Origin: an uncultured Candidatus Saccharibacteria bacterium
Lineage (GTDB): Bacteria > Patescibacteriota > Minisyncoccia > Phycocordibacterales > DAORIS01
Assembly (NCBI GenBank): GCA_964644035.1
Contig: CAZXUH010000001.1
Location: 461,720 to 525,719, forward strand
DNA length: 64,000 nucleotides
Direction of reading: 5' to 3'
Shown here: positions 28,618-58,547 of the stretch, one piece after another
How the letters are laid out: each line of letters starts with the position of its first letter
Position numbering within the stretch: the first letter of the stretch is position 1
Notes under the pieces: model-generated
Databases searched by the model: none
What the model was told of the DNA's origin: nothing
The model's input: only the letters and a program-made list of their open reading frames with translations
Program-made: the position numbers and the translations under genes

Positions 28618-28693
28618 TGGAGCCACCTCGCAGGATCGAACTGCGGACCCCCGCTTTACGAAAGCGGTGCTCTACCAACTGAGCTAAGGTGGC
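28618..28693 (-). tRNA. tRNA-Thr (anticodon CGT), CCA encoded
   Basis: Reverse-complement GCCACCTTAGCTCAGTTGGTAGAGC...TTCGTAA...GGTGGCTCCA forms a perfect cloverleaf. Confidence 0.85.
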
Positions 28694-28783
28694 CCTTCTA
28701 CGCTTCTGCTACGCAGAAGCTATGAAGGACAAACGCCAATTGCATGCTTGTCGCGCGAAGCTCCTTTAGGAGCGAAGTGCGAG

Positions 28784-28856
28784 AGCCGTTGCCCGGAATC
28801 GAACCGGGGACCTTTTCCTTACCATGGAAATGCTCTACCGACTGAGCTACAACGGC
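28784..28856 (-). tRNA. tRNA-Thr (anticodon GGT)
   Basis: Reverse-complement GCCGTTGTAGCTCAGTCGGTAGAGCATTTCCATGGTAAGGAAA...CAACGGCT forms a perfect cloverleaf. Confidence 0.85.
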
Positions 28857-28951
28857 ATATACCGATCAAACTCATCCGAGATCGGATGAGTGACGTAAAT
28901 GTAGCTTATTTAAAGCTTTTTTTCAATTATTCGAGCTTATCTTAGGCCTTT

Positions 28952-29626
28952 TTAGGCATTGAGAAGACAAGCACTGAGAAATGCTGTTTGAGTCCACCCG
29001 CATTTGCCTGTTGCCTGACGTTCACACGTTGCTGTTTGATAGCACGCATATTCTGCTTTATACTCGCAACTTGAAGCGACATCTGGTTCATCAGAACATA
29101 TTTGAGCGCTGCAACCACCAACATAGCACTTACCTGTCGCCACAGGAGTCACACCTCCAGGATTGTGAGGTTCTATAGTAAATGTAAATCGATAATCGCT
29201 ATCTGTAATATCTCTGGTAGATACTGGATATGGTTCTACTTCTTTGAGAGTAATCTTGAGAGTTTCAGTGGTGACTGACTTACCTACTTCGAGTGTATTG
29301 GTCGATGTGCCCATTGCTGTATATATATTGAGAGACATTCTTACACGACCAGCTTGTATACACTGTACATCCGAAGGACAGCGACTATCTTCTATCACAG
29401 CACGCGGTTCAAAAACCGTTCCAGAAACAGTTTTCTTTTCGTTAAGTTTCATAACAACCGTGGTTGTAGCCTGAAGAGGAATATCATCTATATCAGGAGT
29501 CGATTCTGTCGATGTCACTACTTCGCCAGTATCGACTGGAGCAGCATCTTCACTGTAGGTAAAATACACACCTGCCAATATCGCCACCAATACCAACATG
29601 ATTACTAAAAAATGTATGGGTCTCAT
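28952..29626 (-). CDS. Secreted protein with C-terminal Cys-rich module
   Basis: Signal/anchor MRPIHFLVIMLVLVAILAGV. Roughly ten Cys in the last 70 aa (CYVGGCSAQICSDE...CEYKAEYACYQTATCERQATGKCGW). Confidence 0.45.
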   Translation of the reverse strand: MRPIHFLVIMLVLVAILAGVYFTYSEDAAPVDTGEVVTSTESTPDIDDIPLQATTTVVMKLNEKKTVSGTVFEPRAVIEDSRCPSDVQCIQAGRVRMSLNIYTAMGTSTNTLEVGKSVTTETLKITLKEVEPYPVSTRDITDSDYRFTFTIEPHNPGGVTPVATGKCYVGGCSAQICSDEPDVASSCEYKAEYACYQTATCERQATGKCGWTQTAFLSACLLNA

Positions 29627-29702
29627 AATATAAGTATAACGTTACTATAATGACTAAGACGCATGAATAGGCACTTTATGACGCTAGATCTCTCAACTAC
29701 CC

Positions 29703-30395
29703 TTATTTCACCTTCTGTTTGAAGTATTCCTTGAGCTTCTCTTCCCCGAGAGGTTTGTCACCTTTTTCTATTACCAGACTCTCCTTTATTTCTCTCCAGT
29801 GATTTCGATTGTATTTCCAGTTGATAAGAAAGACGACAAACATAGCAATGATTGCCCCGAGTCCTGCTACCAACATATCTTTCTGTGCATCCCATATATC
29901 TCCCTGACTTCCGAGGAATGCCAGACCGGCAGATGGGTCAACACGTAGTGCCGTAAGCCATTCAACGATTTCGTAGATTGCTGACATAGCGAAGGCAATA
30001 TCGATTGGCATAAAGTATGACCAAATTCCCTTTGCTTTTGAAATTCGTATAAATACTTCACGTACGGGATATGCCAAGAGAAATCCGAAACTAAAATGCA
30101 CTAAGCGATCGTACATATTTCTATCAGCACCAAGCCAATCTTTGAGCGTGTTGCCAAAAGGCACCTCGGCATAAGTGTAGTGAGAACCAATAACATGCAG
30201 AATCATAAAAATCGTCACCAAGGTATACGAAACGTTTGAGAGTTTGAAGTATCTACCTGTAATCAATATTAGAGGTACAAAAATAAATACGAGATAGTTT
30301 TCTAGTAGCCAACCATCTCTATACAGAGGATTGATCGCCGCCCAAATCCACACTAGTAGAAATGCCACAATAAGCCCCTTTTTATATGTGATCAT
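29703..30395 (-). CDS. DUF2238 (YjdF-like) membrane protein
   Basis: 230 aa polytopic protein with the YjdF-family pattern (NPLYRDGWLLENYLVF...HFSFGFLLAYP). Confidence 0.55.
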   Translation of the reverse strand: MITYKKGLIVAFLLVWIWAAINPLYRDGWLLENYLVFIFVPLILITGRYFKLSNVSYTLVTIFMILHVIGSHYTYAEVPFGNTLKDWLGADRNMYDRLVHFSFGFLLAYPVREVFIRISKAKGIWSYFMPIDIAFAMSAIYEIVEWLTALRVDPSAGLAFLGSQGDIWDAQKDMLVAGLGAIIAMFVVFLINWKYNRNHWREIKESLVIEKGDKPLGEEKLKEYFKQKVK

Positions 30396-30449
30396 AATAA
30401 GTTTAGTATAACAAAACCGTGTCAGAGCATGACACGGTTTGAAGTAAAT

Positions 30450-30740
30450 TCAAATGGTACAAGGTATTGTTAGGCTATGGAGAAATTCTTTCGCTCCCAC
30501 TTCCCTAGCCATCTCAAAAGCAAATCTGTACGTCCTGCCACATTTGCAACACTTTGGTGTATCGAAAAGAAATTTTCCGTGAAAAGTGCCAATGACTTTC
30601 TTCACCACCACCCCATCACAATCTTTTTCTCGACATAATCCTCCCGGTAAAGGAGTCTCTTGTTCTGCTGAAGCAGCTATTTTAGCTTCGATTTCGCGCC
30701 ACATCTTCTTAGAAATCCGTATTGCCTTTTTACGAGCCAT
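30450..30740 (-). CDS. Small Cys-containing protein (possible zinc-ribbon), hypothetical
   Basis: AAGGAG SD 8 nt upstream of the ATG at 30740. The ORF-track extension to 30908 is an artifact that reads through tRNA-Asp. Confidence 0.45.
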   Translation of the reverse strand: MARKKAIRISKKMWREIEAKIAASAEQETPLPGGLCREKDCDGVVVKKVIGTFHGKFLFDTPKCCKCGRTYRFAFEMAREVGAKEFLHSLTIPCTI

Positions 30741-30796
30741 ACCTATCTCCTTTTGGTAAACGTCTACCGAGAATATAGCACAAAATCTCTTTGTTG

Positions 30797-30871
30797 CGCG
30801 GCCGACCGGACTTGAACCGGCAACCTCTCGCGTGACAGGCGAGTGCTCTAACCAAGTTGAGCTACGACCGC
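30797..30871 (-). tRNA. tRNA-Asp (anticodon GTC)
   Basis: Reverse-complement GCGGTCGTAGCTCAACTTGGTTAGAGCACTCGCCTGTCACGCGAG...CGGCCGCG forms a canonical cloverleaf. Confidence 0.85.
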
Positions 30872-31018
30872 AAATTATCGATGTGTAACTGAGAAATGAC
30901 TCTGTCACAGTCGAAGTGCTTAAAATCTAACAGATTTAATGCTTTTCCACAATAGGAAAAGGGGGTCGCGATTGCAACCCCCTTCATTGAACCATTCCCC
31001 TACAAACAGGCGGGATAC

Positions 31019-31312
31019 CTAGGAAGCGATTGAAAAGGCTTCCTCCAGTGTGGCAATTGCCATCTTTGCGCCATCGGTATCCATCTTGGGAACCGGTGAA
31101 CGAAATCTTCTGCACCGTTGACCCCGCGGTGCCGGCTGAATGCTTGACTCGAAAGTCTGCTGCTCGTAGACCTCCCGAGTGACATTTTGCCCAAACGATG
31201 TGAATCCGTTGGCATTGAGTATAGCATCGCCAACAAGCGCGCATGCTTTCTCGTTACCTGCCGGACGATCTCCGATGTGGCGTTCGCCACATACTATATT
31301 TGGTGACGACAT
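31019..31312 (-). CDS. Hypothetical small protein on a GC-rich island
   Basis: 97 aa. GGGAGGACGACT SD directly before the ATG at 31312. Terminator hairpin GGGGGTCGCGATTGCAACCCCC downstream. GC well above the flanks. Confidence 0.4.
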   Translation of the reverse strand: MSSPNIVCGERHIGDRPAGNEKACALVGDAILNANGFTSFGQNVTREVYEQQTFESSIQPAPRGQRCRRFRSPVPKMDTDGAKMAIATLEEAFSIAS

Positions 31313-31482
31313 AGTCGTCCTCCCGAAAAAACAGAAATGAGGGATGAAGAATACCGGCATCCATGGAGGTATTTACCTCAAATCCCTGCCCAAATATCAT
31401 CCTACTCCCATGAATAATCATGTCAAGATGATGTTTCAACCATTTTGCCTTTTGTATCTAAGCCCTGTATGCTCTCCAATAT

Positions 31483-32784
31483 ATGCGGACAAATATAGTG
31501 GCCGAGGGTGCAGACGAACTAACATATGAAATACGAGGTATTGTAGCTGTTGCTCATCACCTCAAGAAACTTGGCGTCGACATTTTTTGGGAAAATATTG
31601 GTGATCCAGTAGCTAAAGGCCATGTGTTGCCTGAATGGATAAAAAATACCATTGTTTCCAAAATATCTTCAGATCCTACTGTCTTCGGCTACTCCCCGAC
31701 TCAAGGCGTGCTTGAGGCAAGAGAATTTATATCTCAAAAAAGAAATAAAGAAAGTAATGTAAACATCACGACCGAAGACATTCTTTTCTTCAATGGTCTT
31801 GGCGATGCTATTTCCAAAATCTACACTCATCTCAATACCAACGTACGAGTCATTGGCCCTGATCCAGCCTACCCTACTCACTCTTCGGCTGAAGCTTCGC
31901 ATGCTGATTCTCCTCATCCGACGTACAAACTCGATCCTAAAAACAATTGGCTGCCAGATATCAATGATCTTGAGAATAAAATCAAATTCAATCCTGCCAT
32001 TGGCGGCATTCTCATTATCAATCCAGACAATCCGACCGGCATGGTCTATCCAAAAGAAGTGTTGATAAAAATAGTAGCTTTGGCAAAAAAGTACGATCTG
32101 TTTATCATTTCAGACGAAATCTATGCCAATATCTATTATCACGCTTCGCATATCACTCTCCTTTCCGATGTTATTGGCGACGTGCCAGCGATAGCGATGA
32201 AAGGTATATCAAAAGAAATACCATGGCCGGGAGCGCGATGCGGCTGGGTAGAATTTTACAATCGTTCCAAAGACAAAGTATTTGAACGATATGCAAAAAG
32301 TCTCGTCGATGCAAAAATGCTCGAGGTCTGCTCGACTACCCTACCTCAAAAAGTATTGCCTGAAATTCTTGGCGACAAGAAATATCCAGCATATCTCAAA
32401 GAAAAAAGTCTTTTTTACAAAAAGCGTGCCGATGCTGCCTACACTATTCTTTCAAAAAACTCAGGAATAGTAGTGGTAAAACCAAAAGGCGCTTTTTATA
32501 TGTCGGTAGTATTTAAAGATAATAAACTTACTGAAAAACAAACTTTAAAGATAGAAAATAAGAAAGTAAAAGAATATATAGAGTCTATTACCAAGGATAT
32601 TCCTGCTGACAAACGCTTTGTCTACTATCTTTTAGGTGCTACAGGCATATGCGTTGTTCCCCTTTCTGGTTTCAACTCCTCGCTTCAAGGATTTAGGATC
32701 ACCTTGCTCGAAACTGACGACAAAAAATTCAATCAGGTCTTCAAAACACTCGATGAAGCTATAAAAAAATATCTGGCTTCTTAA
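31483..32784 (+). CDS. Class I/II PLP-dependent aminotransferase (AlaA/aspartate aminotransferase-like)
   Basis: ELTYEIRG N-terminus similar to AlaA-type enzymes. SDEIYANIYY motif near the PLP-lysine region. Length 433 aa. Confidence 0.75.
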   Translation: MRTNIVAEGADELTYEIRGIVAVAHHLKKLGVDIFWENIGDPVAKGHVLPEWIKNTIVSKISSDPTVFGYSPTQGVLEAREFISQKRNKESNVNITTEDILFFNGLGDAISKIYTHLNTNVRVIGPDPAYPTHSSAEASHADSPHPTYKLDPKNNWLPDINDLENKIKFNPAIGGILIINPDNPTGMVYPKEVLIKIVALAKKYDLFIISDEIYANIYYHASHITLLSDVIGDVPAIAMKGISKEIPWPGARCGWVEFYNRSKDKVFERYAKSLVDAKMLEVCSTTLPQKVLPEILGDKKYPAYLKEKSLFYKKRADAAYTILSKNSGIVVVKPKGAFYMSVVFKDNKLTEKQTLKIENKKVKEYIESITKDIPADKRFVYYLLGATGICVVPLSGFNSSLQGFRITLLETDDKKFNQVFKTLDEAIKKYLAS

Positions 32785-32829
32785 ACAACTATTTGCACAA
32801 GGGCAGTTTTTACTATAGTATTGCTTGCA

Positions 32830-32904
32830 AGCGGGGTGGAGCAGCAGTAGCTCGCCAGGCTCATAACCTGGAGGTCGTAGGTGCAATTCCTGCCCCCGCT
32901 ACCA
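32830..32904 (+). tRNA. tRNA-Met, initiator-like (anticodon CAT), CCA encoded
   Basis: AGCGGGGTGGAGCAGC...GGCTCATAACCTGG...CCCCCGCTACCA closely resembles bacterial tRNA-fMet. Position 1:72 is an A:U pair. Confidence 0.8.
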
Positions 32905-32984
32905 ATTTTATTCTTTTTTCTTCTTTAGACTCCGTTTGAGAGTTTGTCTTTATCGCTTTTTTTTGTTTAAATACCACCACACAT

Positions 32985-33057
32985 GTCAGGGTAGCTCAGT
33001 CGGTAGAGCACAGGACTCATAAGCCTGGGGTCGTGGGTTCGATCCCCACCCCTGACA
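32985..33057 (+). tRNA. tRNA with CAT anticodon (elongator Met or Ile2)
   Basis: GTCAGGGTAGCTCAGTCGGTAGAGCACAGGACTCATAAGCCTGG...CCCTGACA forms a cloverleaf with one mismatch at 31:39. Confidence 0.75.
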
Positions 33058-33196
33058 CATTAAACTTTAGTCTCCTATTTTCCTTGGGGATCGAAAGCCG
33101 GAAGATAAGCTCCGGGGGAGCTTATCTGAGGCGGGGTCGCGACTTTTGCGAAGCAAAAAGTTGTGACCGATCCTCAACCTCACACTATCTTAGAAA

Positions 33197-33907
33197 CTAT
33201 ATAAACTCGTATTCCTTAAATACGTTTTCGTAGAGACCAATTACACGTCGCGCTTCTCTTGGAGTGAGCACAAAATTTTCTCCTTCATGCGCAATCGCAT
33301 TGCGTATCTTGTGGGCCTCCCACGCATCATTGAGCGTATCCATATCACCCTGCTCTACCTTTTTGAGTTTCTCCCCTATCGTTTCACCACGATATCCATT
33401 TACATCAAGTATTTCATCGAGAATAATATCGGCTTCAAGTATTGCCAGCTTCCAATCAGACGGATTCTCAGACTGAGCATAGAGGACAATACGTCTCCAG
33501 CGCTTCTTGCCGGGATCTTCTTCGACATGAGCAATACCCGGAGTCGAAAGTTCTTTATACTCTTCATCATTACCCTGACTAACCTTTCTAAAGAGCCAGA
33601 TAATAGCACCGATGAAAAATGCCGCAATAAGATAGAGAAAATATTTCAACAGTAAAAAGCAGATATAGAGGGTATGAAAGAACGGCGACGTCTCAGACAT
33701 GCGTCGCAAATTGCGAAGTGAAGGATCAGCATAGAAACGACGAAGCAAACTATCCTGATCGAGACGATGGACGAAAAAGTAATCTATGCCGTATTTGATA
33801 CCAAGGATTGCTCGGTAACAAAGATAGATAGCAACAAGAATAACAAGAATCTCTTCGAGGAGTACCCACACATCCTTGTCCGGACTTTTTTCTTTTTCTT
33901 CTGCCAT
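33197..33907 (-). CDS. Membrane-anchored protein with C-terminal DUF4145/HEPN-like domain
   Basis: Two N-terminal TM helices. C-terminal ...WEAHKIRNAIAHEGENF matches the Rx4-6H HEPN motif and the DUF4145 consensus (IRNxxAHG). Confidence 0.5.
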   Translation of the reverse strand: MAEEKEKSPDKDVWVLLEEILVILVAIYLCYRAILGIKYGIDYFFVHRLDQDSLLRRFYADPSLRNLRRMSETSPFFHTLYICFLLLKYFLYLIAAFFIGAIIWLFRKVSQGNDEEYKELSTPGIAHVEEDPGKKRWRRIVLYAQSENPSDWKLAILEADIILDEILDVNGYRGETIGEKLKKVEQGDMDTLNDAWEAHKIRNAIAHEGENFVLTPREARRVIGLYENVFKEYEFI

Positions 33908-33919
33908 ATGTATAGTGTC

Positions 33920-35341
33920 CTATGAATTCAGGACTTTTTCAAATTTCTTTCCCACTTCAAACAGAATATCTTCCCTAAAATGCGCTGACATAAACTGTAT
34001 ACCAACAGGCAATTGTTTACCTTCCCTCTCTACGCTACCACTAGGGACCGACATGCCAGGTACTCGTACAAGATTGGCCGAGACGGTAAAGATATCGGCA
34101 AGATACATTGCGAGTGGATCGCTACTTTTCTCCCCTATTTTGAAAGCTGGCATAGGCGAAGTCGGAGTCGCAATTGCATCTACTTCCGCAAAAGCTTTTA
34201 GGAAATCGCTTGTCATGAGTTTCTGCACACTCTGAGCTTTGTTGTAATACGCATCATAATATCCTGATGACAAGACATAGGTACCGAGCATAATTCTACG
34301 TCTCACTTCTTTGCCAAATCCTGCTGCACGAGTAACAAAGTAATCATCGATGACGTTTTCTCCATCTACATGCAAACCATATTTAATACCATCAAAACGA
34401 GACAGGTTCGATGACGCTTCTGCAGGCATGAGCACGTAGTAGACAGCTAGTGCATATTGAAGATTTGGAAGAGAAACATCTTTGATCGTATAGCCAGCTT
34501 TTTCTAATAGTTTGAGGGAGTCTTCAAAATTCTTAAGGACGTCAGTATCTACACCGTTTTTGAGCATTGAAAATGGCACACCAATAACACCTGTTTTCTT
34601 TGTAGAAATATCTTTTGCTTCGAGCGTAGTTGCATCCATTGGATCAGCACCCCTCAGAGCATTGAAAATGATCTCTGCGTCATCGACAGATTTTGTAATC
34701 GGACCTATTTGATCGAGTGACGATGCCATAGCCATAAGACCATATCGAGACACACTACCGTAAGTAGGCTTAAGCCCTACCAAGCCAGTAAAACTCGCTG
34801 GCTGTCGTATAGATCCGCCCGTATCAGAACCAAGTGCTGCTAGCGCTCCATGCATAGCAACAGCTGCCGCTGAGCCACCAGATGATCCTCCAGGAACAAG
34901 TTCTTCATCGACAGGATTGCGAGTAATACCATACGCCGAAGATTCTGTGGATCCTCCCATGGCAAATTCATCCATGTTTGCTCGGCCGATAAAAATAGGA
35001 TTTTCTTTTTTGATTTTCTCTATTACTGTCGCATCGTAGGGAGCAACATAGCCTTCAAGGATTTTTGAAGCAGCTGAAGCCTTCTTTCCTTTTATTAAAA
35101 TATTGTCTTTGATAGCCAAAGGAATGCCGGTGAGAAGCGTAGCTGAGCCGTCATTGATTCTCTTCTGTGCTACTTCGATCTGTTCATCGAGATCATCGTA
35201 TATTTCGAGATAGGCATTGAACTTTTTATTACGCGCATCAATATTTTTCGTATATGCATGCACTAAGTCCTTTACTGAGAACTTTTTTTGCACAAGTGCT
35301 TCATGCGTCTGCCTGATATTGAGTTTCTCTACATCGATCAT
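33920..35341 (-). CDS. gatA: Glutamyl-tRNA(Gln) amidotransferase subunit A
   Basis: Amidase signature GGSSGGSAAAVA. Length 473 aa. Immediately downstream of gatC. Confidence 0.9.
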   Translation of the reverse strand: MIDVEKLNIRQTHEALVQKKFSVKDLVHAYTKNIDARNKKFNAYLEIYDDLDEQIEVAQKRINDGSATLLTGIPLAIKDNILIKGKKASAASKILEGYVAPYDATVIEKIKKENPIFIGRANMDEFAMGGSTESSAYGITRNPVDEELVPGGSSGGSAAAVAMHGALAALGSDTGGSIRQPASFTGLVGLKPTYGSVSRYGLMAMASSLDQIGPITKSVDDAEIIFNALRGADPMDATTLEAKDISTKKTGVIGVPFSMLKNGVDTDVLKNFEDSLKLLEKAGYTIKDVSLPNLQYALAVYYVLMPAEASSNLSRFDGIKYGLHVDGENVIDDYFVTRAAGFGKEVRRRIMLGTYVLSSGYYDAYYNKAQSVQKLMTSDFLKAFAEVDAIATPTSPMPAFKIGEKSSDPLAMYLADIFTVSANLVRVPGMSVPSGSVEREGKQLPVGIQFMSAHFREDILFEVGKKFEKVLNS

Positions 35342-35342
35342 A

Positions 35343-35627
35343 TTAGAAGATATTTTTTACCTTTACATAATTGCCTTCTCTATCTGGAGCAGCCTTCAAT
35401 AGTGCTTCTGTATACGTACCACCTTCTGTGACCTCTATATCATTCCGAAACGTATTGTGAGATCGTGGTACGGAAACTGCCACTTCACCTTCAGCAGATA
35501 CTTTTTGTATTTGTGCAACATAGCCCAAAATACCGTCGATTTCCTTTTGAAAAGAGGCTATTTCACCTTCTGAGAGTTTGATACGCGAGAGTTCGGCTAG
35601 TTTTTCTATATCTTTCCTTTCAATCAT
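35343..35627 (-). CDS. gatC: Glutamyl-tRNA(Gln) amidotransferase subunit C
   Basis: 94 aa. KLSRIKLSEGEIASFQKEIDGILGYV is typical of GatC. Positioned 5' of gatA. Confidence 0.85.
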   Translation of the reverse strand: MIERKDIEKLAELSRIKLSEGEIASFQKEIDGILGYVAQIQKVSAEGEVAVSVPRSHNTFRNDIEVTEGGTYTEALLKAAPDREGNYVKVKNIF

Positions 35628-35663: not shown

Positions 35664-37679
<2,016 letters not shown>

Positions 37680-37687: not shown

Positions 37688-39028
37688 TTACAGACATAGA
37701 GGGAAATTGTCCAAATCTTCAAATGTTTCTACTTCAAAAAAGTACCCTGGGGCTTCTGTGTCGGGATCGGTATTGTCGTATTTACCAGCTACACCTCTAT
37801 TGAGGAAGTCGCTGCAGTTTGCATATCCATCGCATAGCAATCCTCCAGTTCCAATACCAATAGTGTATACAGTAATACCCTGAGCTTTAGCATCATTGGC
37901 TTCTATGATTGCATCTTGAATAGCATCAGCTCTTCCTTCATCACCCGTGCGATATGTACCAGTCGTGCAATCATCTCCATTTGCATATTCACCATCCTTA
38001 CACAATTCATCTCGGTTTGAACCGTCGCTCAAAATAAGCATGAAGTCTGGATATGAAAGATCGTCGCGATCGTGTACTGGAACATCGGCACCTGTGGCTG
38101 TGAGATTGTAAGAACCGATATTGCCTGCTACCTGACCAGTAAGTTCATATCGTGCTACTCGAATACCTCCAGAAAGGTTGGTACCTCCATTTACATATCC
38201 AAGCTCATCGACGTGATTTTTAAGATCTTCTGAAGAGTCCTTTAGGTGGTCTTTAAGATAAATATGATCTTTGAACCAAATCATACCAATGTTGGTTCCT
38301 GGTGGTGACGGGTTGAGTTCGTCGATGAATCGTTTTGCTGAGGCTTTGAGCAAATCAAGCTCGCTAGGTGGAACTGATTCTTCATTTGGATCTTCTTCAC
38401 CACTGATACTTCCTGAAATATCCATCACAAGCATTGTATCGCCTCTGTTGCTGCAAAGATCTCGCGGAACTGGAGTGTACGTAAGCTTTACTGCTCTTTC
38501 GAGGCGACGAGGACCTGTGGTGTCTGTATTGCGACCGTACGAATCGATAGATGTTTCATTGGTCTCGACATTTTTTTCTACATATACATCACCATCGGGA
38601 GTACCAGGTGTATCTTCGAGAAGACTAAAAGAAACTTTGTATTTTTTGCATTCACCGACACTGTCTTGGCATGGAATACAATCGCCAGAAATATTCTCGC
38701 ATGCAGTTTTATCAGGTTCAGTCGATGTAACGTCTGTGACTGGTATTGCTTCATTGCCAAAACAGCTAATAGTTGCCTTGCCTGCACCGGGCAAGAAAGC
38801 ATTTCTATCGGTAGTAACCTGATCCCAGTATTTTACACACTCAAGACCAGAGTCGGCTGCATAAAATGCCACCTGTGATTCCCTTCCGACAGACGAAATA
38901 ATGAGGTGTTTTGAACTAAGACCAATGATAGAAAATGCCACTGCAAGCAAAAGACTCATCAGAAGGACACCGAAAAGAAGAGTGAATCCTTTATTTGAAT
39001 CTTTTTTCATATCTAAAAAGTATATCAT
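37688..39028 (-). CDS. Pilin-like protein with vWA (MIDAS) domain; putative pilus-tip adhesin (PilY1/TadG-like)
   Basis: N-terminus KGFTLLFGVLLMSLLLAVAF looks like a pseudopilin. MIDAS motif DISGSIS. First gene 5' of the minor-pilin set. Start could be 39028 or 39010; the track starts at a TTG at 39040. Confidence 0.6.
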   Translation of the reverse strand: MIYFLDMKKDSNKGFTLLFGVLLMSLLLAVAFSIIGLSSKHLIISSVGRESQVAFYAADSGLECVKYWDQVTTDRNAFLPGAGKATISCFGNEAIPVTDVTSTEPDKTACENISGDCIPCQDSVGECKKYKVSFSLLEDTPGTPDGDVYVEKNVETNETSIDSYGRNTDTTGPRRLERAVKLTYTPVPRDLCSNRGDTMLVMDISGSISGEEDPNEESVPPSELDLLKASAKRFIDELNPSPPGTNIGMIWFKDHIYLKDHLKDSSEDLKNHVDELGYVNGGTNLSGGIRVARYELTGQVAGNIGSYNLTATGADVPVHDRDDLSYPDFMLILSDGSNRDELCKDGEYANGDDCTTGTYRTGDEGRADAIQDAIIEANDAKAQGITVYTIGIGTGGLLCDGYANCSDFLNRGVAGKYDNTDPDTEAPGYFFEVETFEDLDNFPLCL

Positions 39029-39603
39029 CTTACTTCCCAATCAAAGAGCACTTCTCTAACGGTAAATGTCTTACCTCCAAAAGGTCCTGACGACCACGTA
39101 ACAGTTGCCACGACCTCGGCTTCAGTATCACTAACCAGTTTTATATTGATATGACGAGAATAGTTGGAGTTTGTACCCGTAACATGGTTGTAGCCGTTGG
39201 CACTATCGAGTTTTAGAGTGCAACTAGATCCTGAGCATGGAGTAATACCGACCGCAGAAATATCAGTCACTACGTCGACACTGCAATTTCTTGGTGTATT
39301 GTCCCCGACAGGCTGAATACATTCTACAGGTATGTTCAGGCACCCATCACTCTCATCGCCCCCAGTGAGCCATGGGCAGGTTGTCGTGGCAATATAGTTG
39401 GTATCGCGAATACTTCTGACTTGTTCGATCGCCTCTTCAGCCAAATAAAAGGCGCTGATCTGGTCTCGAGCATAAAACGACGACTGCAAACCCATTTGAG
39501 CAGCACTGAGCGTTGCTCCTATAGCGACTGTAATAATAAAGATCGCCACCAGTGTCTCGATGATTGTAAATCCTTTGGTATTTTTTGTTGAAAATAGTTT
39601 CAT
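39025..39603 (-). CDS. Type IV minor pilin / pseudopilin (prepilin N-terminal methylation domain)
   Basis: KGFTIIETLVAIFIITVAIG is a prepilin cleavage motif (G|FTxxE). Confidence 0.75.
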   Translation of the reverse strand: MKLFSTKNTKGFTIIETLVAIFIITVAIGATLSAAQMGLQSSFYARDQISAFYLAEEAIEQVRSIRDTNYIATTTCPWLTGGDESDGCLNIPVECIQPVGDNTPRNCSVDVVTDISAVGITPCSGSSCTLKLDSANGYNHVTGTNSNYSRHINIKLVSDTEAEVVATVTWSSGPFGGKTFTVREVLFDWEVR

Positions 39604-39604
39604 A

Positions 39605-40168
39605 TTAGCTTGCAGGATTTATTTGGCGCTTTGTCATGAGCGTTTGTATGAAAAATGACGATCTGTTGGTTGTCTTGGTCTGAGCATAGCCCTTGAGTCG
39701 TAGGAATACCTTGTCTTGAAATTCTCGAGGAGAGCCTGTGTCGACACTCAGTACAAACGCTGCATCCTCTATCTTCACTTCATCGGCTGTAAAAGGTTTA
39801 TAAATACCAGCAGCGAGCGTACTTCCCTTTTCCAAACGTCCTGTATGCGCCGATCCATCGGTTTCCATAAATCTATAAATATACTGCTCACCATCGGCGC
39901 CAATATCAGGGGTAAATTGTATAGCTAAACAATCATCATCAGTGCCATCGACACAAGAGAAATCAGTACCAACTCGTATCTCTCTGGCCATGGACTCAAG
40001 TGCAGTGTTGAGGTTGGTCATGACAGAGTTCAATGACTGAGACTTTTGATTGGCATCAATCACTGCCAAGATTGCGGCCGTGCCGGAGATAACGACAACT
40101 GCAAAAAGGGCCACGGAAACAAGAATCTCTATGAGGCTGAAACCGCTGTTTGATGAATTGTGTTTCAT
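39605..40168 (-). CDS. Type IV minor pilin / pseudopilin
   Basis: SGFSLIEILVSVALFAVV is a prepilin motif. Start taken at MKHNSS. Confidence 0.75.
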   Translation of the reverse strand: MKHNSSNSGFSLIEILVSVALFAVVVISGTAAILAVIDANQKSQSLNSVMTNLNTALESMAREIRVGTDFSCVDGTDDDCLAIQFTPDIGADGEQYIYRFMETDGSAHTGRLEKGSTLAAGIYKPFTADEVKIEDAAFVLSVDTGSPREFQDKVFLRLKGYAQTKTTNRSSFFIQTLMTKRQINPAS

Positions 40169-40189
40169 GCTATATGTATTTTCACACAC

Positions 40190-40831
40190 TTAGTTGCAAG
40201 TATCCACCACTTCGATCTGACCTGAGCTCAAAATATTGACCTGTTTTGTCTTAGCGGTCTGTGAAAGCAAACAGATAGTTGCTTGGTTGAAATGCGTGCC
40301 ATTGGCAATAATAATCGCATCTGGATTTGGCCGCATAAAGGTCACGCTCATAGCTGTAATAGAAGGAGATGTATCGTCAGAACACTCTATATCGGCAACA
40401 CCTGAGTCTGGTATGACGCAGAAATTTTGTATCGTATTGCCCGCGGGGAAACTAAAGGTGCGCATAATCGTATCGGATGAATCGTAGCCTTCTATACCTC
40501 CTGCCCCACCAACAATATTGTTGGTATCAGCGAAGAAACTGTAGCGAGCATTGTTTGAAGCAGATAGATAGATTCCATAAGGATTATTGAAAGAACCAAG
40601 ACCATCCACATCCTTGCTACCAAGACCATATGTCTGAGCTTCGCGTATTGAGAGAGCAACGTCGTCGGCCAAACCGGAGAGAATAATATTGTTTCCAAAC
40701 TTTCTTTGATTGGCGACGAGTACTGTCGTCAAAATAGAAAAGATAGCCATGACGATAAGGAGTTCGAGCAAGCTAAATCCAAAAGAGCTTTTTTTAAATA
40801 ACTTTAAAATATGTTTTGAAATATGTTTCAT
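40190..40831 (-). CDS. Type IV minor pilin / pseudopilin (GspH/FimT-like)
   Basis: FGFSLLELLIVMAIFSIL is a prepilin motif. Confidence 0.75.
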   Translation of the reverse strand: MKHISKHILKLFKKSSFGFSLLELLIVMAIFSILTTVLVANQRKFGNNIILSGLADDVALSIREAQTYGLGSKDVDGLGSFNNPYGIYLSASNNARYSFFADTNNIVGGAGGIEGYDSSDTIMRTFSFPAGNTIQNFCVIPDSGVADIECSDDTSPSITAMSVTFMRPNPDAIIIANGTHFNQATICLLSQTAKTKQVNILSSGQIEVVDTCN

Positions 40832-41595
40832 CGTGTGAAAGAAAATAGCATCAATATGTCTTCAATATGTATATTAGCAAAAAATACGAAGGCTGTACCT
40901 ATCACCAAAAACGGTGCAAACGGTATTTCACTTTTCATGTGCAGATTGCCAAGCCGGAAAACCATGACCAAAATACCAATAAGCGCCCCGATCCAAAATG
41001 CGAGCGTGATAGCTGCATAGCCCATATTCATTCCAAGCATCCAGCCCATGGCCAAGCCAAACTTAGCATCGCCAAATCCCATCCACTTCCCTTTTGAAAT
41101 GAGCCAGATAAACAGAAATGGAAATGCTACTGCCGGTCCAGCGACCAAAAGCGATATGGCTTCGCTTGGTATGCGGACAAAAAGCATATTCACAAACAGA
41201 CTGAGAAATGCAAAAGAAAATACCAAACCATCGGGAATAATTTTGTGCTTGAGATCATATACAAAAATCGCTACCAGCAATGACCATACGATTGCATAGT
41301 ATGGAGTACCGATAGTAAATCCAAAAATCTCATATATTCCGACAAAAAGAGCTCCAGTAGTAAACTCTACCAATGGATATTGCCATGATAATCGGCTATT
41401 GCAGCCCGTACAGCGGCCACCCTGAAAGAAGAAACTAAACAATGGTATAAGTTCGTACCAAGCGAGCGTTTTGCCGCAGGAGAGGCATTTTGAGCGGCCA
41501 GTGATTTTCCAACCTGTGTTGTATCTATAGATAACTACATTGAGAAAGCTGCCTATGCATAGACCGATCAGAAAAATAAAGAGTTCAACGATCAT
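40828..41595 (-). CDS. pilD: Prepilin peptidase (A24 family)
   Basis: N-terminal Cys box (CLSCGK...CTGC), polytopic, catalytic Asp region GFGDAKF. Length 255 aa. Confidence 0.85.
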   Translation of the reverse strand: MIVELFIFLIGLCIGSFLNVVIYRYNTGWKITGRSKCLSCGKTLAWYELIPLFSFFFQGGRCTGCNSRLSWQYPLVEFTTGALFVGIYEIFGFTIGTPYYAIVWSLLVAIFVYDLKHKIIPDGLVFSFAFLSLFVNMLFVRIPSEAISLLVAGPAVAFPFLFIWLISKGKWMGFGDAKFGLAMGWMLGMNMGYAAITLAFWIGALIGILVMVFRLGNLHMKSEIPFAPFLVIGTAFVFFANIHIEDILMLFSFTR

Positions 41596-41652
41596 GATGC
41601 AATAATAGTAGCATATATTTTAGTTGACCTACTGGATACCTCCTCCCCTAGC

Positions 41653-41739
41653 CCCTCCTCTAAAGAGGAGGGGAACACTAAAAGGTCTTGTGCTTCAGAG
41701 TCCTCCCTCCTCATTCTGAGGAGGGATTGAGGGAGGAGG
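41653..41739 (+). repeat. GA/CT-rich palindromic repeat element, copy 1
   Basis: 22-bp perfect palindrome CCCCTCCTCTAAAGAGGAGGGG plus a 65-nt tail containing a second inverted repeat CCTCCCTCCTCA...TGAGGAGGGATTGAGGGAGGAGG. Ends 4 nt before the pilin stop. Confidence 0.7.
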
Positions 41740-41743
41740 CATA

Positions 41744-42163
41744 TCACCTACTCACCTTAAAATTGTTTGCCGGAGTGCCGCTATTGCAACTATCTGATGT
41801 CGCTACGGAAGTACTATTTGCATTTTCAAGCGTCGTACCAAGACAATACGAAAGTCTGAGACCACTAGCATTGGTTGTCGGATTGTAGCTATATGCATCC
41901 CCTTGTGGTCCAACAGGCAATGTCGGCACAAAACCTTCTGTCACAAGCTGCATAAGATTAGCTGGATACTGCTTACTTTCACTGTCTGAGTTCTGAAACG
42001 ACGCTTCAAGTGCTATTTGAACCTGCTTAATATCATTGAGTCTTCTTGCATCACGTGCTCTCTGTCGAGCTTCATTGCCCCGAAACATTACTACACCAGA
42101 AAGAACACCGATAATAGCTACTGCAATAAGCAATTCAATAAGAGTAAATCCTTTTTTATTCAT
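41744..42163 (-). CDS. pilA: Type IV pilin (PilA-like)
   Basis: MNKKGFTLIELLIAVAIIGVLSGV is the canonical type IVa prepilin leader. Start moved to 42163 (GAAGGT SD). Confidence 0.85.
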   Translation of the reverse strand: MNKKGFTLIELLIAVAIIGVLSGVVMFRGNEARQRARDARRLNDIKQVQIALEASFQNSDSESKQYPANLMQLVTEGFVPTLPVGPQGDAYSYNPTTNASGLRLSYCLGTTLENANSTSVATSDSCNSGTPANNFKVSR

Positions 42164-42184
42164 ACATATATTGTACCTTCTACC

Positions 42185-42218
42185 TAGACAAAACAAAACA
42201 CCGCTTTTGGCGGTGTTT
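42185..42218 (-). terminator. Rho-independent terminator between the two pilin genes
   Basis: AACACCGC-loop-GCGGTGTT hairpin followed by TTTTGTTTTG on the minus strand. Confidence 0.55.
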
Positions 42219-42253
42219 TTATCTGCAATGAGTAGAGAAAATAGAAAAGCTCT

Positions 42254-42676
42254 CTAGCTACAAGATACTGCGGTACCTGAAGGATTAGCCGTTGTGGCAA
42301 CTGCATTACCCTTTGAGTCAACACACCAATATGATGCAGTATTACTCTTCAACTGGGCTGATAGTACCCAAGCACCAGCAACATCTTTACATACAGTCGC
42401 ACCTGATCCAGCCAACCTTGAGCCTGTGGCCATCTGGTCAATACCACCACCAGTTGAACTGTTATAACAAACGCCTAAGTAACTCTGGCTATTTGAATCA
42501 TAGTAGAGTTCAGCCTGTGCACGTGCATTGTTAACGTTAGACTTAATGGCTGCATCAGAACCCTTTGCGCGAGCAGAGTTGAGTGATGCAAGCACAACCG
42601 CTGATAGGATACCGATGATAGCGATGACCACCAAGAGTTCAATCAGGGTGAAACCTTTTCTAAAAGAAGTTTTCAT
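42254..42676 (-). CDS. pilA: Type IV pilin (PilA-like), second copy
   Basis: MKTSFRKGFTLIELLVVIAIIGILSAV. C-terminal Cys pair for the D-region disulfide. Confidence 0.85.
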   Translation of the reverse strand: MKTSFRKGFTLIELLVVIAIIGILSAVVLASLNSARAKGSDAAIKSNVNNARAQAELYYDSNSQSYLGVCYNSSTGGGIDQMATGSRLAGSGATVCKDVAGAWVLSAQLKSNTASYWCVDSKGNAVATTANPSGTAVSCS

Positions 42677-42832
42677 TTATAAATATATTATCTTATAACT
42701 ATTAAACATCGCGTCCCTACGTTTGGCCATTATCAGCGGCTAAATAAAGGCACGACTGCTTACACGTAATTATATACCGCCTATTGAAGGCGTAAATGGG
42801 TCGTGTGGATAACCAATCACCTTCTCCCCTTT

Positions 42833-42854
42833 CCCCTCCTCTAAAGAGGAGGGG
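42833..42854 (+). repeat. Palindromic repeat, copy 2 (palindrome only)
   Basis: Exact CCCCTCCTCTAAAGAGGAGGGG followed by AAC, as in copy 1. Confidence 0.7.
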
Positions 42855-42918
42855 AACTTTATGTTTTATTGAGGTTATTTTTAGTACTTCTGCATACAAC
42901 GAGAGTCATACTCCTTAC

Positions 42919-43341
42919 ATGAAGAAAATAATAAACAAAAATGAGCTGCTTTTACGCAGACGAGACCTAAGAAAATCAATGACTCACCAAGAGATACTTC
43001 TATGGGAGCATTTTAGACGCAAGCAAATGGGCTATCGCATCCATCGACAATACAGTATCGGATCATTTGTTGTGGATTTTTATTGCCCAAAAGCAAAGCT
43101 TATTATAGAAATCGATGGGTATCACCATAATAAACCAGAAGAAATAGAATACGATACTTTTCGAACAAAATTCTTTGAAGAACTTGGCCTCAATGTAATA
43201 CGTTTTACTAATCAACAAATTAATACCAATCTTGTAAAAGTTCTTACAGCGATTAAAGCTAAACTCCTCTCCTCCAAAGAGGAGAGAGCTTCTACACCTC
43301 CTCCCTCAATCCCTCCTCATCTTGAGGAGGGAGGACTCTGA
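42919..43341 (+). CDS. DUF559 endonuclease-domain protein (Vsr/restriction-endonuclease-like fold)
   Basis: SMTHQEILLWEHFRRKQMGYRIHRQYSIGSFVVDFYCPKAKLIIEIDGYHH...RTKFFEELGLNVIRFTNQQI matches the DUF559 consensus. The 3' end reads into repeat copy 3. Confidence 0.7.
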   Translation: MKKIINKNELLLRRRDLRKSMTHQEILLWEHFRRKQMGYRIHRQYSIGSFVVDFYCPKAKLIIEIDGYHHNKPEEIEYDTFRTKFFEELGLNVIRFTNQQINTNLVKVLTAIKAKLLSSKEERASTPPPSIPPHLEEGGL

Positions 43342-43383
43342 AGTACAGGACCTTTAGTGTTCCCCTCCTCTATAGAGGAGGGG
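43265..43383 (-). repeat. Palindromic repeat, copy 3 (inverted relative to copy 1) plus a degenerate extra palindrome
   Basis: Reverse-complement of 43297..43383 aligns almost base-for-base with copy 1. The palindrome variant is CCCCTCCTCTATAGAGGAGGGG. An extra CTCTCCTCCAAAGAGGAGAG sits at 43265-43289. Confidence 0.65.
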
Positions 43384-43421
43384 TCAGGGGAGGAGGTGTA
43401 AAAAGGAGGTGGCCAGGGTGG

Positions 43422-44630
43422 TTAAAACGCCGACGCAATATTGTAAATAGGCACCAAAACTGCCGCAAGGAGAATACCAACCCCGACACCCAAAAGCACA
43501 ATCATCACTGGTTCGATAAGACTGACCAGTGTATCTACAGCATTGAGCACTTCGCGCTGATAAAAGGTCGACATAGTCTTGAGAATCTTACCAAGCTCAC
43601 CAGTTTCTTCACCGACTTTGACCATTTGAATGAATATGCCTGGGAATTGTGGATATCTTGAGAATACGTCGGAAACCGATGCTCCAGCTTTGACTGCTTC
43701 GATACTATCGAGCAAGATTTTCTGATAGGTATAACTCTCAACAACTGTCGAAGTGATTTCGAGTGTGCGAAGCATTGGTATACCAGCCACGATCATCGTG
43801 TTCATGTTGTCGGCAATACGAGAAAGGAAAAGTTTTCTGTACAAATCACCGATAAAAGGTATTTTGAGTTTCATTTCATCGAACCATGCCTTGCCGGAAT
43901 CGCTTTTTATATATCGGAAGAAAAGAAAACCACAGATCACTAATGCGCCGAGCAAGAAGAATCCATAATTGACCAAAAATGCACTGGCCCCAAGGATAAT
44001 CTTGGTATAAATCGGTATTTCCTGACCAGAATCGGTCAAAATCGTGGCGATCTTAGGAATGACCATCGTGAACATCAGGATCATGACAGTAATGAACGTC
44101 GCGACGATAAATGCCGGATAAATAAAGGCATTGCGAGCCTTCGACGTCACTTCAAATGATCGGTCGAGATAGTCAGCAAGATAGACAAAGGTCTCATTGA
44201 GCTTACCTGATTCTTCACCAGCTCTCACCATGTTTACATAGAAAAGAGAAAATGTTTTTGGATGTTTACCCAAAGCTGCAGAGATAGAACTTCCACCCTG
44301 CAAGTCATCGGCTACGACCGTCAAAATAGTACGTAGTTGTGGCTGTTCTGTCTCAGCAGCCAAAAGTCTGAACACTCGAAGCGCTGAAACTTGCGATTCG
44401 AAAAGGATCGATATCTGACGAGAAAGAATAACGACATCTTTATTGCTAACACGAGAAAAGAAATTGAGATTTCTCTTAAGAATCGAGCCTTCTTCTTGGA
44501 GTGGCTTGATCGAGGTAAGTATCAATCCCCTTCTTTGAAGAGAATTGATGGCAATATCCATCGTGATCGCATCGATCGATCCTTCTTTTGATGTGCCGTC
44601 TGATTCGAGTGTCTTGTATCTAAAAATCAT
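43422..44630 (-). CDS. pilC: Type IV pilus platform protein PilC (GspF family)
   Basis: 402 aa. Two GspF repeats, three TM segments, typical PilC organisation. Confidence 0.85.
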   Translation of the reverse strand: MIFRYKTLESDGTSKEGSIDAITMDIAINSLQRRGLILTSIKPLQEEGSILKRNLNFFSRVSNKDVVILSRQISILFESQVSALRVFRLLAAETEQPQLRTILTVVADDLQGGSSISAALGKHPKTFSLFYVNMVRAGEESGKLNETFVYLADYLDRSFEVTSKARNAFIYPAFIVATFITVMILMFTMVIPKIATILTDSGQEIPIYTKIILGASAFLVNYGFFLLGALVICGFLFFRYIKSDSGKAWFDEMKLKIPFIGDLYRKLFLSRIADNMNTMIVAGIPMLRTLEITSTVVESYTYQKILLDSIEAVKAGASVSDVFSRYPQFPGIFIQMVKVGEETGELGKILKTMSTFYQREVLNAVDTLVSLIEPVMIVLLGVGVGILLAAVLVPIYNIASAF

Positions 44631-44638
44631 GATTTATT

Positions 44639-45703
44639 TTATGAAAGCATGCGCTCGAGAAGCTTAGGATTGACTGAACGATTGTATGCATTCTCGATAG
44701 AAATTTGTCCCTGACGTACAAGCTCGACCAAAGACCGGTTAAGATCGATCATTCCCTGCTGAGAACTTGTTTCGATCACGGTATTGATTTCATGCGTGCG
44801 CTTTTCGCGGATAAGATTGGCGACGGCACCGTTGTTGATAAGCAATTCATAGGCTGGCACAAGACCTCCTGATATACGAGGGATGAGACGCTGAGAAAAG
44901 ATACCAGTAAGGCTGGCTGCAAGCTGCACGCGGATCTGAGCCTGCTGCTCTGCAGGGAAAATGTCGATAATACGTTCGATAGTCTGAGCAGCATTGTTGG
45001 TATGAAGTGTAGAAAATACCAAATGTCCTGTTTCAGCAGCAGTAACAGCTGTTGCGATAGTTTCGAGACCGCGCATTTCACCGATAAGAATCACGTTGAC
45101 GTCTTGTCGGACAGCGTGGACAAGAGCAGTGTTGAAATCTTTTGTATCTATATTGACTTCACGTTGGTTGATAATAGATTTTTTAGGAGTGTAGACATAT
45201 TCCACTGGATCTTCAATGGTAATGATGTGTTCCATTCGATCTTGGTTGATAAGTTCGATAAGTGCAGCAAGTGTCGTCGACTTTCCCTGTCCGACTGGTC
45301 CTACCACAAGAAAGAAACCTTGTTTCTTGCGAGTAAAGATTTCGAGTGAAGGCGGAAGTCCGAGTTCTTCGAGTGTTCTGACATGATTTGGAATCGTTCT
45401 GAGTGCAAGACCAATCCTTCCCTGCGCTACATAGCCATTGCCGCGGAAACGTCCTGTGTCGCCATGAGAATATGCAAAATCTATTTCTTTATTGGCAATA
45501 AACTGCTGCTTGTACTCTGGCGACATGAGAGCATCGACAATACCAAGCATTTGATCTCTAGTGAGTGGTTGAAAATTGAGAAGTGGTACGAGATATCCCG
45601 ATACGCGAATAGAAGGCTGACGATGTTCTGCAAGATGCAGGTCAGAACCACCTTCCTTTATGACAATTTGAATGAGCGAATCGAGAAATTTTTTTGTATC
45701 CAT
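44639..45703 (-). CDS. pilT: Twitching-motility (retraction) ATPase PilT
   Basis: Walker A GPVGQGKST, Asp box, His box. Length 354 aa. AIRNLIRE-type motif near the C-terminus. Confidence 0.85.
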   Translation of the reverse strand: MDTKKFLDSLIQIVIKEGGSDLHLAEHRQPSIRVSGYLVPLLNFQPLTRDQMLGIVDALMSPEYKQQFIANKEIDFAYSHGDTGRFRGNGYVAQGRIGLALRTIPNHVRTLEELGLPPSLEIFTRKKQGFFLVVGPVGQGKSTTLAALIELINQDRMEHIITIEDPVEYVYTPKKSIINQREVNIDTKDFNTALVHAVRQDVNVILIGEMRGLETIATAVTAAETGHLVFSTLHTNNAAQTIERIIDIFPAEQQAQIRVQLAASLTGIFSQRLIPRISGGLVPAYELLINNGAVANLIREKRTHEINTVIETSSQQGMIDLNRSLVELVRQGQISIENAYNRSVNPKLLERMLS

Positions 45704-45733
45704 GCCAAATCTATTTAATGAACGTATTATATC

Positions 45734-46141: not shown

Positions 46142-46209
46142 ATGGTTGTAGGTAGTTATAGTATATACCCCAGCTCATACTCATACAACACCGTCAAGAG
46201 GAGAACTGT

Positions 46210-58464: not shown

Positions 58465-58537
58465 GCGCGTGTAGCTCAGTTGGTAGAGCAGCCGTCTTAT
58501 ACACGGCCGGTCCCTGGTTCGAGTCCAGGCACGCGCA
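58465..58537 (+). tRNA. tRNA-Ile (anticodon TAT, decoding AUA)
   Basis: GCGCGTGTAGCTCAGTTGGTAGAGCAGCCGTCTTATACACGGC...CACGCGCA. Anticodon stem is perfect, loop is CU-UAU-AC with A37. Confidence 0.75.
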
Positions 58538-58547
58538 CCGATAGAAG

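Follow-up and report, generated by a model that had tools for sequence, protein, structure and literature searches.

Nearly all that is known of HEPN domains in bacteria comes from conflict systems, i.e. toxin-antitoxin modules, abortive infection systems, and CRISPR effectors. The domain is defined by an Rx4-6H motif that closes helix 3 and by a conserved acid which, in those domains that have it, is located in helix 2, and helices 2 and 3 are typically separated by an insert (PMC3710099). Membrane-bound HEPN proteins have been described for bacteria in three groups, namely DUF4145 proteins with a transmembrane (TM) helix carrying a WP signature, Abi2/Swt1-type domains behind a single TM helix, and HEPN-2TM-Zn-ribbon proteins, and signal-dependent RNA cleavage at the membrane was proposed for these groups (PMC3710099). 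Ire1 (with its KEN domain) and C6orf70, whose activity depends on oligomerization, were proposed as their eukaryotic analogues (PMC3710099). Two further described proteins are of interest for the comparison made here. HepS is a stand-alone HEPN anticodon nuclease of the Gifsy-1 prophage that needs no antitoxin and cleaves tRNA anticodon loops (PMC13043305), and Csx28, an experimentally studied accessory protein of Cas13b, is an octameric pore with face-to-back packing (bioRxiv 10.1101/2021.11.02.466367).

The gene under study, here called X, was found at 33197..33907 on the minus strand of the window (the whole stretch of DNA that was analyzed, 64,000 nucleotides), with the stop codon at 33197-33199. 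According to the ORF list it is the sole long ORF at this position, starts with ATG, and encodes a protein of 236 aa for which a membrane anchor and a HEPN domain were predicted. An identical protein (P0001) is present in public assemblies. The window protein gave no match in Pfam, NCBIfam, and PADLOC except for transmembrane noise (FixQ). The PDB was searched with the single sequence and with profiles; the profile of the whole protein picked up only TM or coiled-coil noise, that of the domain brought up no relevant entry, and X is thus without a sequence relative in the PDB. From the evidence given below we consider it probable that X spans the membrane twice and exposes to the cytoplasm a HEPN domain of the RNase type, with a putative RNase activity, and that it belongs to a new family and is encoded by a core-like gene.

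The first-pass annotation had pointed to the stretch KIRNAIAHEG at the C-terminus as a match to the Rx4-6H motif of HEPN ribonucleases. This was confirmed, as the stretch corresponds to residues 200-209, and a hand check against the sequence showed that the putative catalytic Rx4H motif R202-N203-A-I-A-H207 is encoded by 33287-33304 (minus strand). The motif was invariant in 50 of 50 aligned homologues and was kept in 343 of 343 family members examined, 339 of which carried it in the form W[ED]AHxxRNxxxH. This invariance indicates that the motif is not a chance match. In the AlphaFold models RNAIAH terminates the helix formed by residues 192-211, and a coincidental motif in a non-helical context, for which the first-pass annotation had left room, was therefore not what we found.

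The domain carrying the motif comprises residues 132-236 (33200..33514, minus strand), with predicted helices at residues 132-144, 149-169, 192-211, and 216-232. The second and third of these are separated in the model by an insert of 22 residues that contains a short additional helix (residues 177-183). Within the helix of residues 149-169 lies the conserved acidic stretch E158-A-D160 (33428..33436, minus strand), in which E158 was invariant and D160 was at least 90% conserved in the alignment of homologues; judged by this alignment and the predicted helix, both residues are expected near the HEPN active site. The C-terminal 109 residues aligned without gaps and with a mean column identity of 69%, and the N-terminal half of the protein was poorly conserved. 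AlphaFold2 modeling of the full protein from a 50-sequence alignment (mean pLDDT 91) yielded a compact helical C-terminal domain, and the model of the domain by itself was confident (pLDDT 95, pTM 0.88). The domain is thus predicted to form a four-helix up-and-down bundle whose second and third helices are set apart by an insert, and in the model the motif, the acidic residue of helix 2, and the insert are all three placed as in the published HEPN definition (PMC3710099).

Structural searches with Foldseek ranked HepS first (PDB 9oij; probability 0.99, 17% identity), together with AF0298 and a HEPN protein from Sulfolobus (SSO), followed by 1wty and MtlR, with weak E-values (0.13-0.8 across these matches, 0.13-0.4 in the run headed by HepS). 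Sequence identity of X to minimal HEPN domains, i.e. AF0298 (2hsb), the HepT toxins (5yep, 7ae2, 8xdj), and TTHA0636 (1wwp), was 7-14%. Four-helix bundles are known to draw generic matches in Foldseek.

At the sequence level, Pfam scans covered 50 full-length and 31 domain-only family members, and in these scans none matched a curated HEPN model above threshold. The nearest Pfam neighbours were all sub-threshold and were, among the 31 domain-only members, HEPN_Swt1 (PF18731; 17 members), pEK499_p136 (PF18736; 10), and HEPN_RiboL-PSP (PF18735; 9), besides Hypoth_Ymh (5) and HEPN_Cthe2314 (3), all five being HEPN families by name or by previous knowledge. The best E-value was 9.8e-4 (HEPN_Swt1), and the gathering score was reached by none. 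A comparison with the PF18736 alignment (43 sequences, seeded from the pEK499 'HEPN family nuclease') using hhalign gave a probability of 64% and an E-value of 6.5e-5 over ~42 columns, i.e. for the helix-2 to helix-3 region only, and placed RNaIAHeG of the X family on RnSVAHF of PF18736, motif on motif.

These results bear on the question whether Rx4H might have arisen by coincidence in an ordinary four-helix bundle unrelated to HEPN, in which case X would be a structural or membrane-organizing protein specific to these bacteria. The highest-ranked structural matches obtained by two methods were specifically HEPN proteins and not generic bundles, the motif is invariant and sits at the defining position, several independent HEPN families of Pfam recur among the sub-threshold matches, and the profile-profile alignment superimposes the two motifs. 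We therefore regard an origin outside HEPN as very improbable. The fold matches, the sub-threshold Pfam matches, and the hhalign result together bear out the C-terminal HEPN domain with a canonical RNxxxH that had been annotated at first pass, and it is highly likely that this domain has the HEPN fold with an intact predicted catalytic signature.

The more specific assignment to DUF4145, on the other hand, was not upheld. PF13643 remained unmatched at E<=10 by the window protein as well as by the 50 full-length and 31 domain-only members, a verdict drawn from the Pfam HMM scans, in which HMMER filters drop most matches above about E 0.1. By these profiles the X family appears to stand outside DUF4145 and every other curated family. 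The anchor itself is less unusual than had been supposed at first pass, as three bacterial groups of membrane-tethered HEPN proteins were already described in 2013, and these groups share with X the joining of TM segments to a HEPN domain predicted to be cytoplasmic (PMC3710099). X differs from them in that the TM hairpin comes first and the HEPN domain last, in having neither a Zn ribbon nor an N-terminal globular domain, in its confinement to Patescibacteria, in being locked to gatCA, and in lacking a DUF4145 HMM match. A WP signature was also not apparent in the TM-region alignment blocks, as judged from half of the rows. A resemblance to DUF4145 exists in architecture, where fusions to 'TM and SH3' listed for Firmicutes (PMC3710099, table) recall those long members of the X family that bear SH3b domains.

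The anchor of X begins with a short charged tail (residues 1-12) ahead of TM helix 1 (residues 13-31; 33815..33871, minus strand), which has a hydropathy peak of 2.27 and falls into an AlphaFold helix of residues 11-48. A loop (residues 32-84; 33656..33814, minus strand) connects it to TM helix 2 (residues 85-103; 33599..33655, minus strand), with a hydropathy peak of 2.31 and an AlphaFold helix of residues 75-120, and a juxtamembrane linker (residues 104-131; 33515..33598, minus strand) leads to the HEPN domain. Hydropathy and AlphaFold thus agree with the two N-terminal TM helices of the first-pass annotation, and the linker proposed to follow them was recovered as a stretch of low confidence in the model (residues 121-131, with pLDDT <50 at residues 125-127). 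By Kyte-Doolittle hydropathy, two hydrophobic helices precede the HEPN domain in most members, and 31 of 85 members had one segment only above the crude hydropathy threshold. The HEPN domain was C-terminal in every family member.

The loop between the TM helices varies in both length and sequence across the family; its median length is 29 aa, and the extremes are about 0 and 497 aa. In long homologues (450-700 aa) tandem bacterial SH3 repeats (SH3_3, SH3b) are located between TM helix 1 and TM helix 2, and one member (P0108) has a surface-layer SLAP domain (PF03217) somewhere along the protein. Both SH3b and SLAP are modules of the cell wall or S-layer and as such extracytoplasmic. The position of the SH3b repeats between the two TM helices therefore argues for a loop outside the cell and for an N-terminus and HEPN domain in the cytoplasm. 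A weak positive-inside signal was also present, with 2.4 and 3.1 K/R on the cytoplasmic flanks versus 1.8 on the loop. We infer a hairpin topology in which the N-terminus and the C-terminal HEPN domain would reside in the cytoplasm and the loop outside. We also considered whether the long members could be fusions of GatA and X, given that 696 is about 473 + 223, and rejected this idea, as the extra length consists of SH3b-type repeats. No fusion of X to GatA, GatB, or GatC was found among the family members.

This architecture is similar to that of Csx28, in which a TM helix at the N-terminus is likewise followed by a cytoplasmic four-helix bundle resembling HEPN at the C-terminus. Csx28 demonstrates that a protein of this build can be a pore instead of a nuclease. 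With the octameric Csx28 pore as a precedent, anchored bundles of X could be imagined to form a ring that depolarizes or permeabilizes the membrane, so that the 'HEPN motif' would be an interface and not an active site. The motif of Csx28 is divergent, however, whereas that of X is a canonical and invariant RNxxxH accompanied by the acid of helix 2. Csx28 is further linked to cas13b, whereas neither cas13b nor any other CRISPR gene was present among the called neighbours of X (five annotated loci) or the recurrent downstream ORFs. A constitutive pore in a housekeeping operon would presumably be deleterious, and Csx28 was absent from the structural matches to X. A pore is therefore a highly improbable explanation, and a cytoplasmic domain of the RNase type is preferred. 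In this respect X compares with Ire1 and C6orf70, which similarly combine a TM anchor with a segment on the outer or lumenal side and with a HEPN RNase (putative in X) in the cytoplasm. X lacks a kinase domain, however, no specific relationship to them was detectable in its sequence, and its outside loop is in most members very short (median 29 aa).

Upstream of X the window encodes a block of housekeeping genes on the same strand. This conserved block opens with ligA (35664..37670, minus strand; 668 aa), the gene of an NAD-dependent DNA ligase, and continues with gatC (35343..35627, minus strand; 94 aa) and gatA (33920..35341, minus strand; 473 aa, Amidase family), which is directly upstream of X. 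The spacer between gatA and X (33908..33919, minus strand) has only 12 nt and contains AGGA overlapping the gatA stop codon, and a scan of this spacer gave no match to a promoter or terminator. Among 83 related loci, in which GatA identity was 53-65%, gatA was located directly upstream of X and on the same strand in 81 (the 80 genome loci being those most similar to the query, so that this synteny figure may fail for remote members). The gap between both genes had a median of 14 nt and was <=60 nt in 72 of these loci, and gatC and ligA were found ahead of gatA wherever the contig extended that far. The context of X in the annotated loci is hence a housekeeping one, and neither mobile nor that of a defence island. 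Based on gene order we predict that X is co-expressed with housekeeping genes, which by itself would not prove a functional link to GatCAB. The entire region, including the tRNA genes downstream, is syntenic in this lineage, and the adjacency to gatA may reflect inheritance and not function.

One related locus (L065) showed a further gene of this operon. Here a complete gatB (GatB_N + GatB_Yqey) begins 20 nt after X, giving the order gatC-gatA-X-gatB, and compared with the classical operon X is thus inserted where gatA and gatB meet. A gatB gene was found only in this locus and neither in the window nor in the other 85 loci. The possibility that X replaces GatB or its tRNA-binding tail was rejected, because a full GatB follows X directly in L065.

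On the downstream side no conserved protein partner was found in 59 loci, the biggest clusters of ORFs being LAGLIDADG-like (10 of 59 loci) and RF2 (8 of 59). Several apparent downstream 'ORFs' turned out to be tRNA genes read as protein. Of the conserved neighbourhood in relatives for which the first-pass annotation had suggested a check, the upstream part was thus present, with gatA in 81 of 83 loci, and a conserved protein gene downstream was not. Just past the stop codon of X the window contains two stem-loops (33104..33168, minus strand), one of them with a perfect 10-bp stem, and this region folds more stably than shuffled sequences (z = -3.05). It might represent the end of the transcript; the stem-loops are without a U-tract, and a scan for consensus terminators gave no call.

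Beyond the stem-loops, two tRNA-Met(CAT) genes are located at 32830-32904 and 32985-33058 on the plus strand, i.e. inverted here and converging on X. Of 77 related loci, 48 had a tRNA-Met(CAT) gene no more than 300 nt downstream of X, in 41 of them on the same strand and at a median distance of 53 nt, and this downstream tRNA-Met is initiator-like in many loci. In the tRNA block of the relatives, a second tRNA-Met, a tRNA-Asp, and two tRNA-Thr genes usually come next. The window has the same set, with both tRNA-Met genes inverted. An Rfam scan of the window detected only tRNAs.

This neighbourhood might alternatively be explained by a HEPN domain that does not cut, and that binds RNA, tRNA, or a nucleotide as an adaptor, for example by holding GatCAB or its tRNA substrates at the membrane. 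The close coupling to gatA, the position of X between gatA and gatB in L065, and the initiator-like tRNA-Met directly downstream in many loci would all fit such a function, and many HEPN domains are indeed non-catalytic binders, e.g. those of kanamycin nucleotidyltransferase, GlnE, and Swt1 (PMC3710099). Non-catalytic HEPN domains are, however, usually without the Rx4-6H motif (PMC3710099), whereas R, N, and H are invariant in the X family and the acidic residue of helix 2 is retained. Moreover, the domains joined to X in long members are SH3b inserts and not GatA, GatB, or GatC. An adaptor without catalytic activity is therefore quite unlikely in our view, and a catalytic HEPN domain remains the preferred reading for X.

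The family to which X belongs is large. More than 1,500 homologues were obtained at 90% clustering, none with a precomputed Pfam domain in the HEPN region. A profile search of 1.84 billion cluster representatives retrieved 2,882 proteins at E<=1e-3 (each standing for a cluster at 50% identity), of which 1,838 were within E<=1e-10. In a scan of one genome per species we found at least 566 loci in at least ~560 species. Among the matches listed, all named records belonged to Patescibacteria (Taylor-, Zambryski-, Kaiser-, Campbell-, and Lloydbacteria, Parcubacteria, and Paceibacterota), and the family appears, as far as sampled, to be confined to Patescibacteria of the Parcubacteria/Paceibacteria type. 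No viral relatives were detected in 2.9 million viral contigs. Judged by its distribution and sequence conservation, X seems to be at least largely vertically inherited and strongly conserved.

Defence genes are typically patchy, mobile, and fast-evolving. The first-pass annotation had raised phage defence, abortive infection, or a toxin, and X would in that case be an RNase of the HEPN type held at the membrane that, when phages or stress strike, kills the cell or stops its growth, its antitoxin or trigger having escaped notice. Bacterial HEPN families are indeed found mostly in conflict systems (PMC3710099), and the best Foldseek match of X, HepS, is a single-protein abortive-infection nuclease. 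Weak matches to the CARF_HEPN and CARF_TM models of PADLOC-DB v2 were also scattered among the family (1-4 of 50 members), with none for the window protein and with no PADLOC model reaching a meaningful score. Against this stand the fixed place within a housekeeping operon (81 of 83 loci), the high conservation of the sequence together with its occurrence in the genomes of at least ~560 species, and the lack of relatives in the viral contigs.

A partner protein that could keep a toxin in check was likewise not encountered. For HEPN-MNT systems (HepT/MntA, type II/VII) an adjacent nucleotidyltransferase antitoxin gene would be expected, and it was absent on both sides of X, where gatA is upstream (81 of 83 loci) and the downstream region (59 loci) contained neither an MNT gene nor any other conserved antitoxin candidate. 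The absence of an obvious antitoxin partner, as stated at first pass, thus agrees with our results, with gatA upstream and no conserved protein family downstream. Unlike HepT and other minimal HEPN proteins, X is without an MNT partner or a toxin-antitoxin context and is membrane-anchored and part of a housekeeping operon. HepS also differs, being soluble, tetrameric, prophage-encoded, and triggered by a phage tail-tip protein (PMC13043305), whereas X is membrane-anchored, chromosomal, and at least largely vertically inherited. We therefore consider a toxin or abortive-infection effector distinctly unlikely. A housekeeping or regulatory role, as opposed to that of a mobile toxin or defence module, is the best reading for X, and the role as a stress RNase that had also been raised at first pass is a possible one.

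For RNase activity, dimerization, gating, and substrate of X we infer the following model. X would be the last cistron of a ligA-gatC-gatA transcript, and its cytoplasmic domain would most likely act as a metal-independent endoribonuclease that cleaves tRNA or mRNA of the cytoplasm close to the inner membrane face. As in other HEPN enzymes, a face-to-face dimer would join two RNxxxH motifs into a composite site, as is the rule for canonical HEPN enzymes (bioRxiv 10.1101/2021.11.02.466367). The TM hairpin would fix the domain at the inner membrane face and may set the geometry of the dimer. The loop outside, with SH3b repeats in some members, may relay signals from the envelope and gate the activity, similar to what was already proposed for other TM-HEPN proteins (PMC3710099). 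A HEPN nuclease that is constitutively co-expressed would need a control mechanism, and none was identified for X.

With regard to the substrate, the gatCAB and tRNA neighbourhood and the precedents of tRNA-cleaving HEPN proteins such as HepS might suggest tRNA, which by such analogy is conceivable and nevertheless rather doubtful. A wider proposal would make X a HEPN endoribonuclease that is held at the membrane, belongs to the vertically inherited core of Parcubacteria/Paceibacteria, and has a function linked to tRNA metabolism. It could then cut or trim particular tRNAs and in this way throttle translation upon an envelope or host-contact signal received through the outside loop. Such a tie, if true, would explain the place of X in the gatC-gatA(-X-gatB) operon and upstream of an initiator-like tRNA-Met, and X would represent a bacterial housekeeping counterpart of Ire1-type signaling and a rare use of HEPN outside of conflict. 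We regard this proposal as unlikely.

X is of a known kind in that bacterial membrane HEPN proteins were catalogued computationally in 2013, and what is new is a large uncurated family of Patescibacteria with a hairpin anchor and a fixed place in a housekeeping operon for replication and translation, a setting unusual for HEPN domains of bacteria. A search of the literature on HEPN in the candidate phyla radiation, Parcubacteria, and Patescibacteria returned no title or abstract on such a family. If X is an active membrane RNase, these ultra-small and largely uncultivated bacteria, about whose RNA metabolism little is known, would have in it a candidate enzyme of RNA turnover or translation control specific to their lineage, and the variants with an SH3b loop would then offer a simple model for signaling from envelope to RNA. 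A curated profile of the family would annotate thousands of 'hypothetical proteins' in Patescibacteria genomes. Many of the matched MAGs bear the label 'uncultured Saccharibacteria', and we suspect that these labels are generic.

Downstream of the gene for the membrane-anchored HEPN-domain protein (33197-33907, - strand) lies a conserved block of tRNA genes, located at 28618-33058 in the window and also present after the gene in related loci L003-L086. Its members are two tRNA-Met(CAT), tRNA-Asp(GTC), tRNA-Thr(GGT) and tRNA-Thr(CGT). Among relatives the first tRNA-Met is encoded on the same strand as the HEPN gene, at a median distance of 53 nt from its stop codon, and carries a 1:72 mismatch (C1xA72 or A1xA72). 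This it has in common with bacterial initiator tRNAs, of which a 1:72 mismatch is a trait. Compared with the relatives, both tRNA-Met genes of the window (32830-32904 and 32985-33058, + strand) have the opposite orientation, and tRNA-Asp is preceded by an inserted aminotransferase gene (31483-32784). In 10 of 59 loci, ORFs similar to LAGLIDADG homing endonucleases (motif ...FFAADGYI...) recurred between the tRNA genes, at a distance of 400-2700 nt on the downstream side of the HEPN gene; an example is 8424-9095 in locus L017.

Directly 3' of the HEPN stop codon, between this gene and the convergent tRNA-Met, the window contains two stable stem-loops (33104-33168, - strand), one of which has a perfect 10-bp stem (GAUAAGCUCC/GGAGCUUAUC; fold z = -3.05 against shuffles). 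No U-tract was found at these stem-loops, and they therefore do not represent a textbook intrinsic terminator.

In one related locus, L065, the gene order was gatC-gatA-HEPN gene-gatB, with a complete gatB (7326-8786, + strand; 487 aa, GatB_N plus GatB_Yqey) starting 20 nt after the HEPN stop codon. A gatB gene was found neither near the HEPN gene in the other 85 loci nor anywhere in the 64-kb window. The metagenome-assembled genome 'MDV bin70' encoded one gatC-gatA-HEPN locus on each of two contigs (L080 and L084), with a HEPN protein of 220 aa in each, which could reflect strain redundancy of the bin or a true duplication. Upstream of ligA, the window encodes a type IV pilus-like cluster (37688-47904, - strand) consisting of genes for a VWA-domain protein (37688-39040), a T2SS F-type protein (43422-44630) and a T2SS/T4P ATPase (46210-47904), together with several small ORFs that are pilin-like (N_methyl) by the annotation of relatives. 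Pilin-like genes were also located upstream of ligA in three related loci (L001, L005 and L006).

Long homologues of the HEPN protein (P0136 with 696 aa, P0147 with 607 aa, P0169, P0179 and P0208) contained several tandem SH3b-like repeats between both transmembrane helices (consensus ...GP..GxxYWxVDFxxGxxGWVxE..L), and a SLAP surface-layer domain was present in homologue P0108. Both kinds of domain are candidate modules for binding to the cell wall or to a host surface, joined to a cytoplasmic HEPN domain.

Elsewhere, the window encodes a tRNA-Ile with anticodon TAT (UAU) (58465-58539, + strand), which is uncommon in bacteria. AUA is usually read by a lysidine-modified CAU tRNA-Ile2; the UAU tRNA would read it directly and the modified tRNA would not be required.
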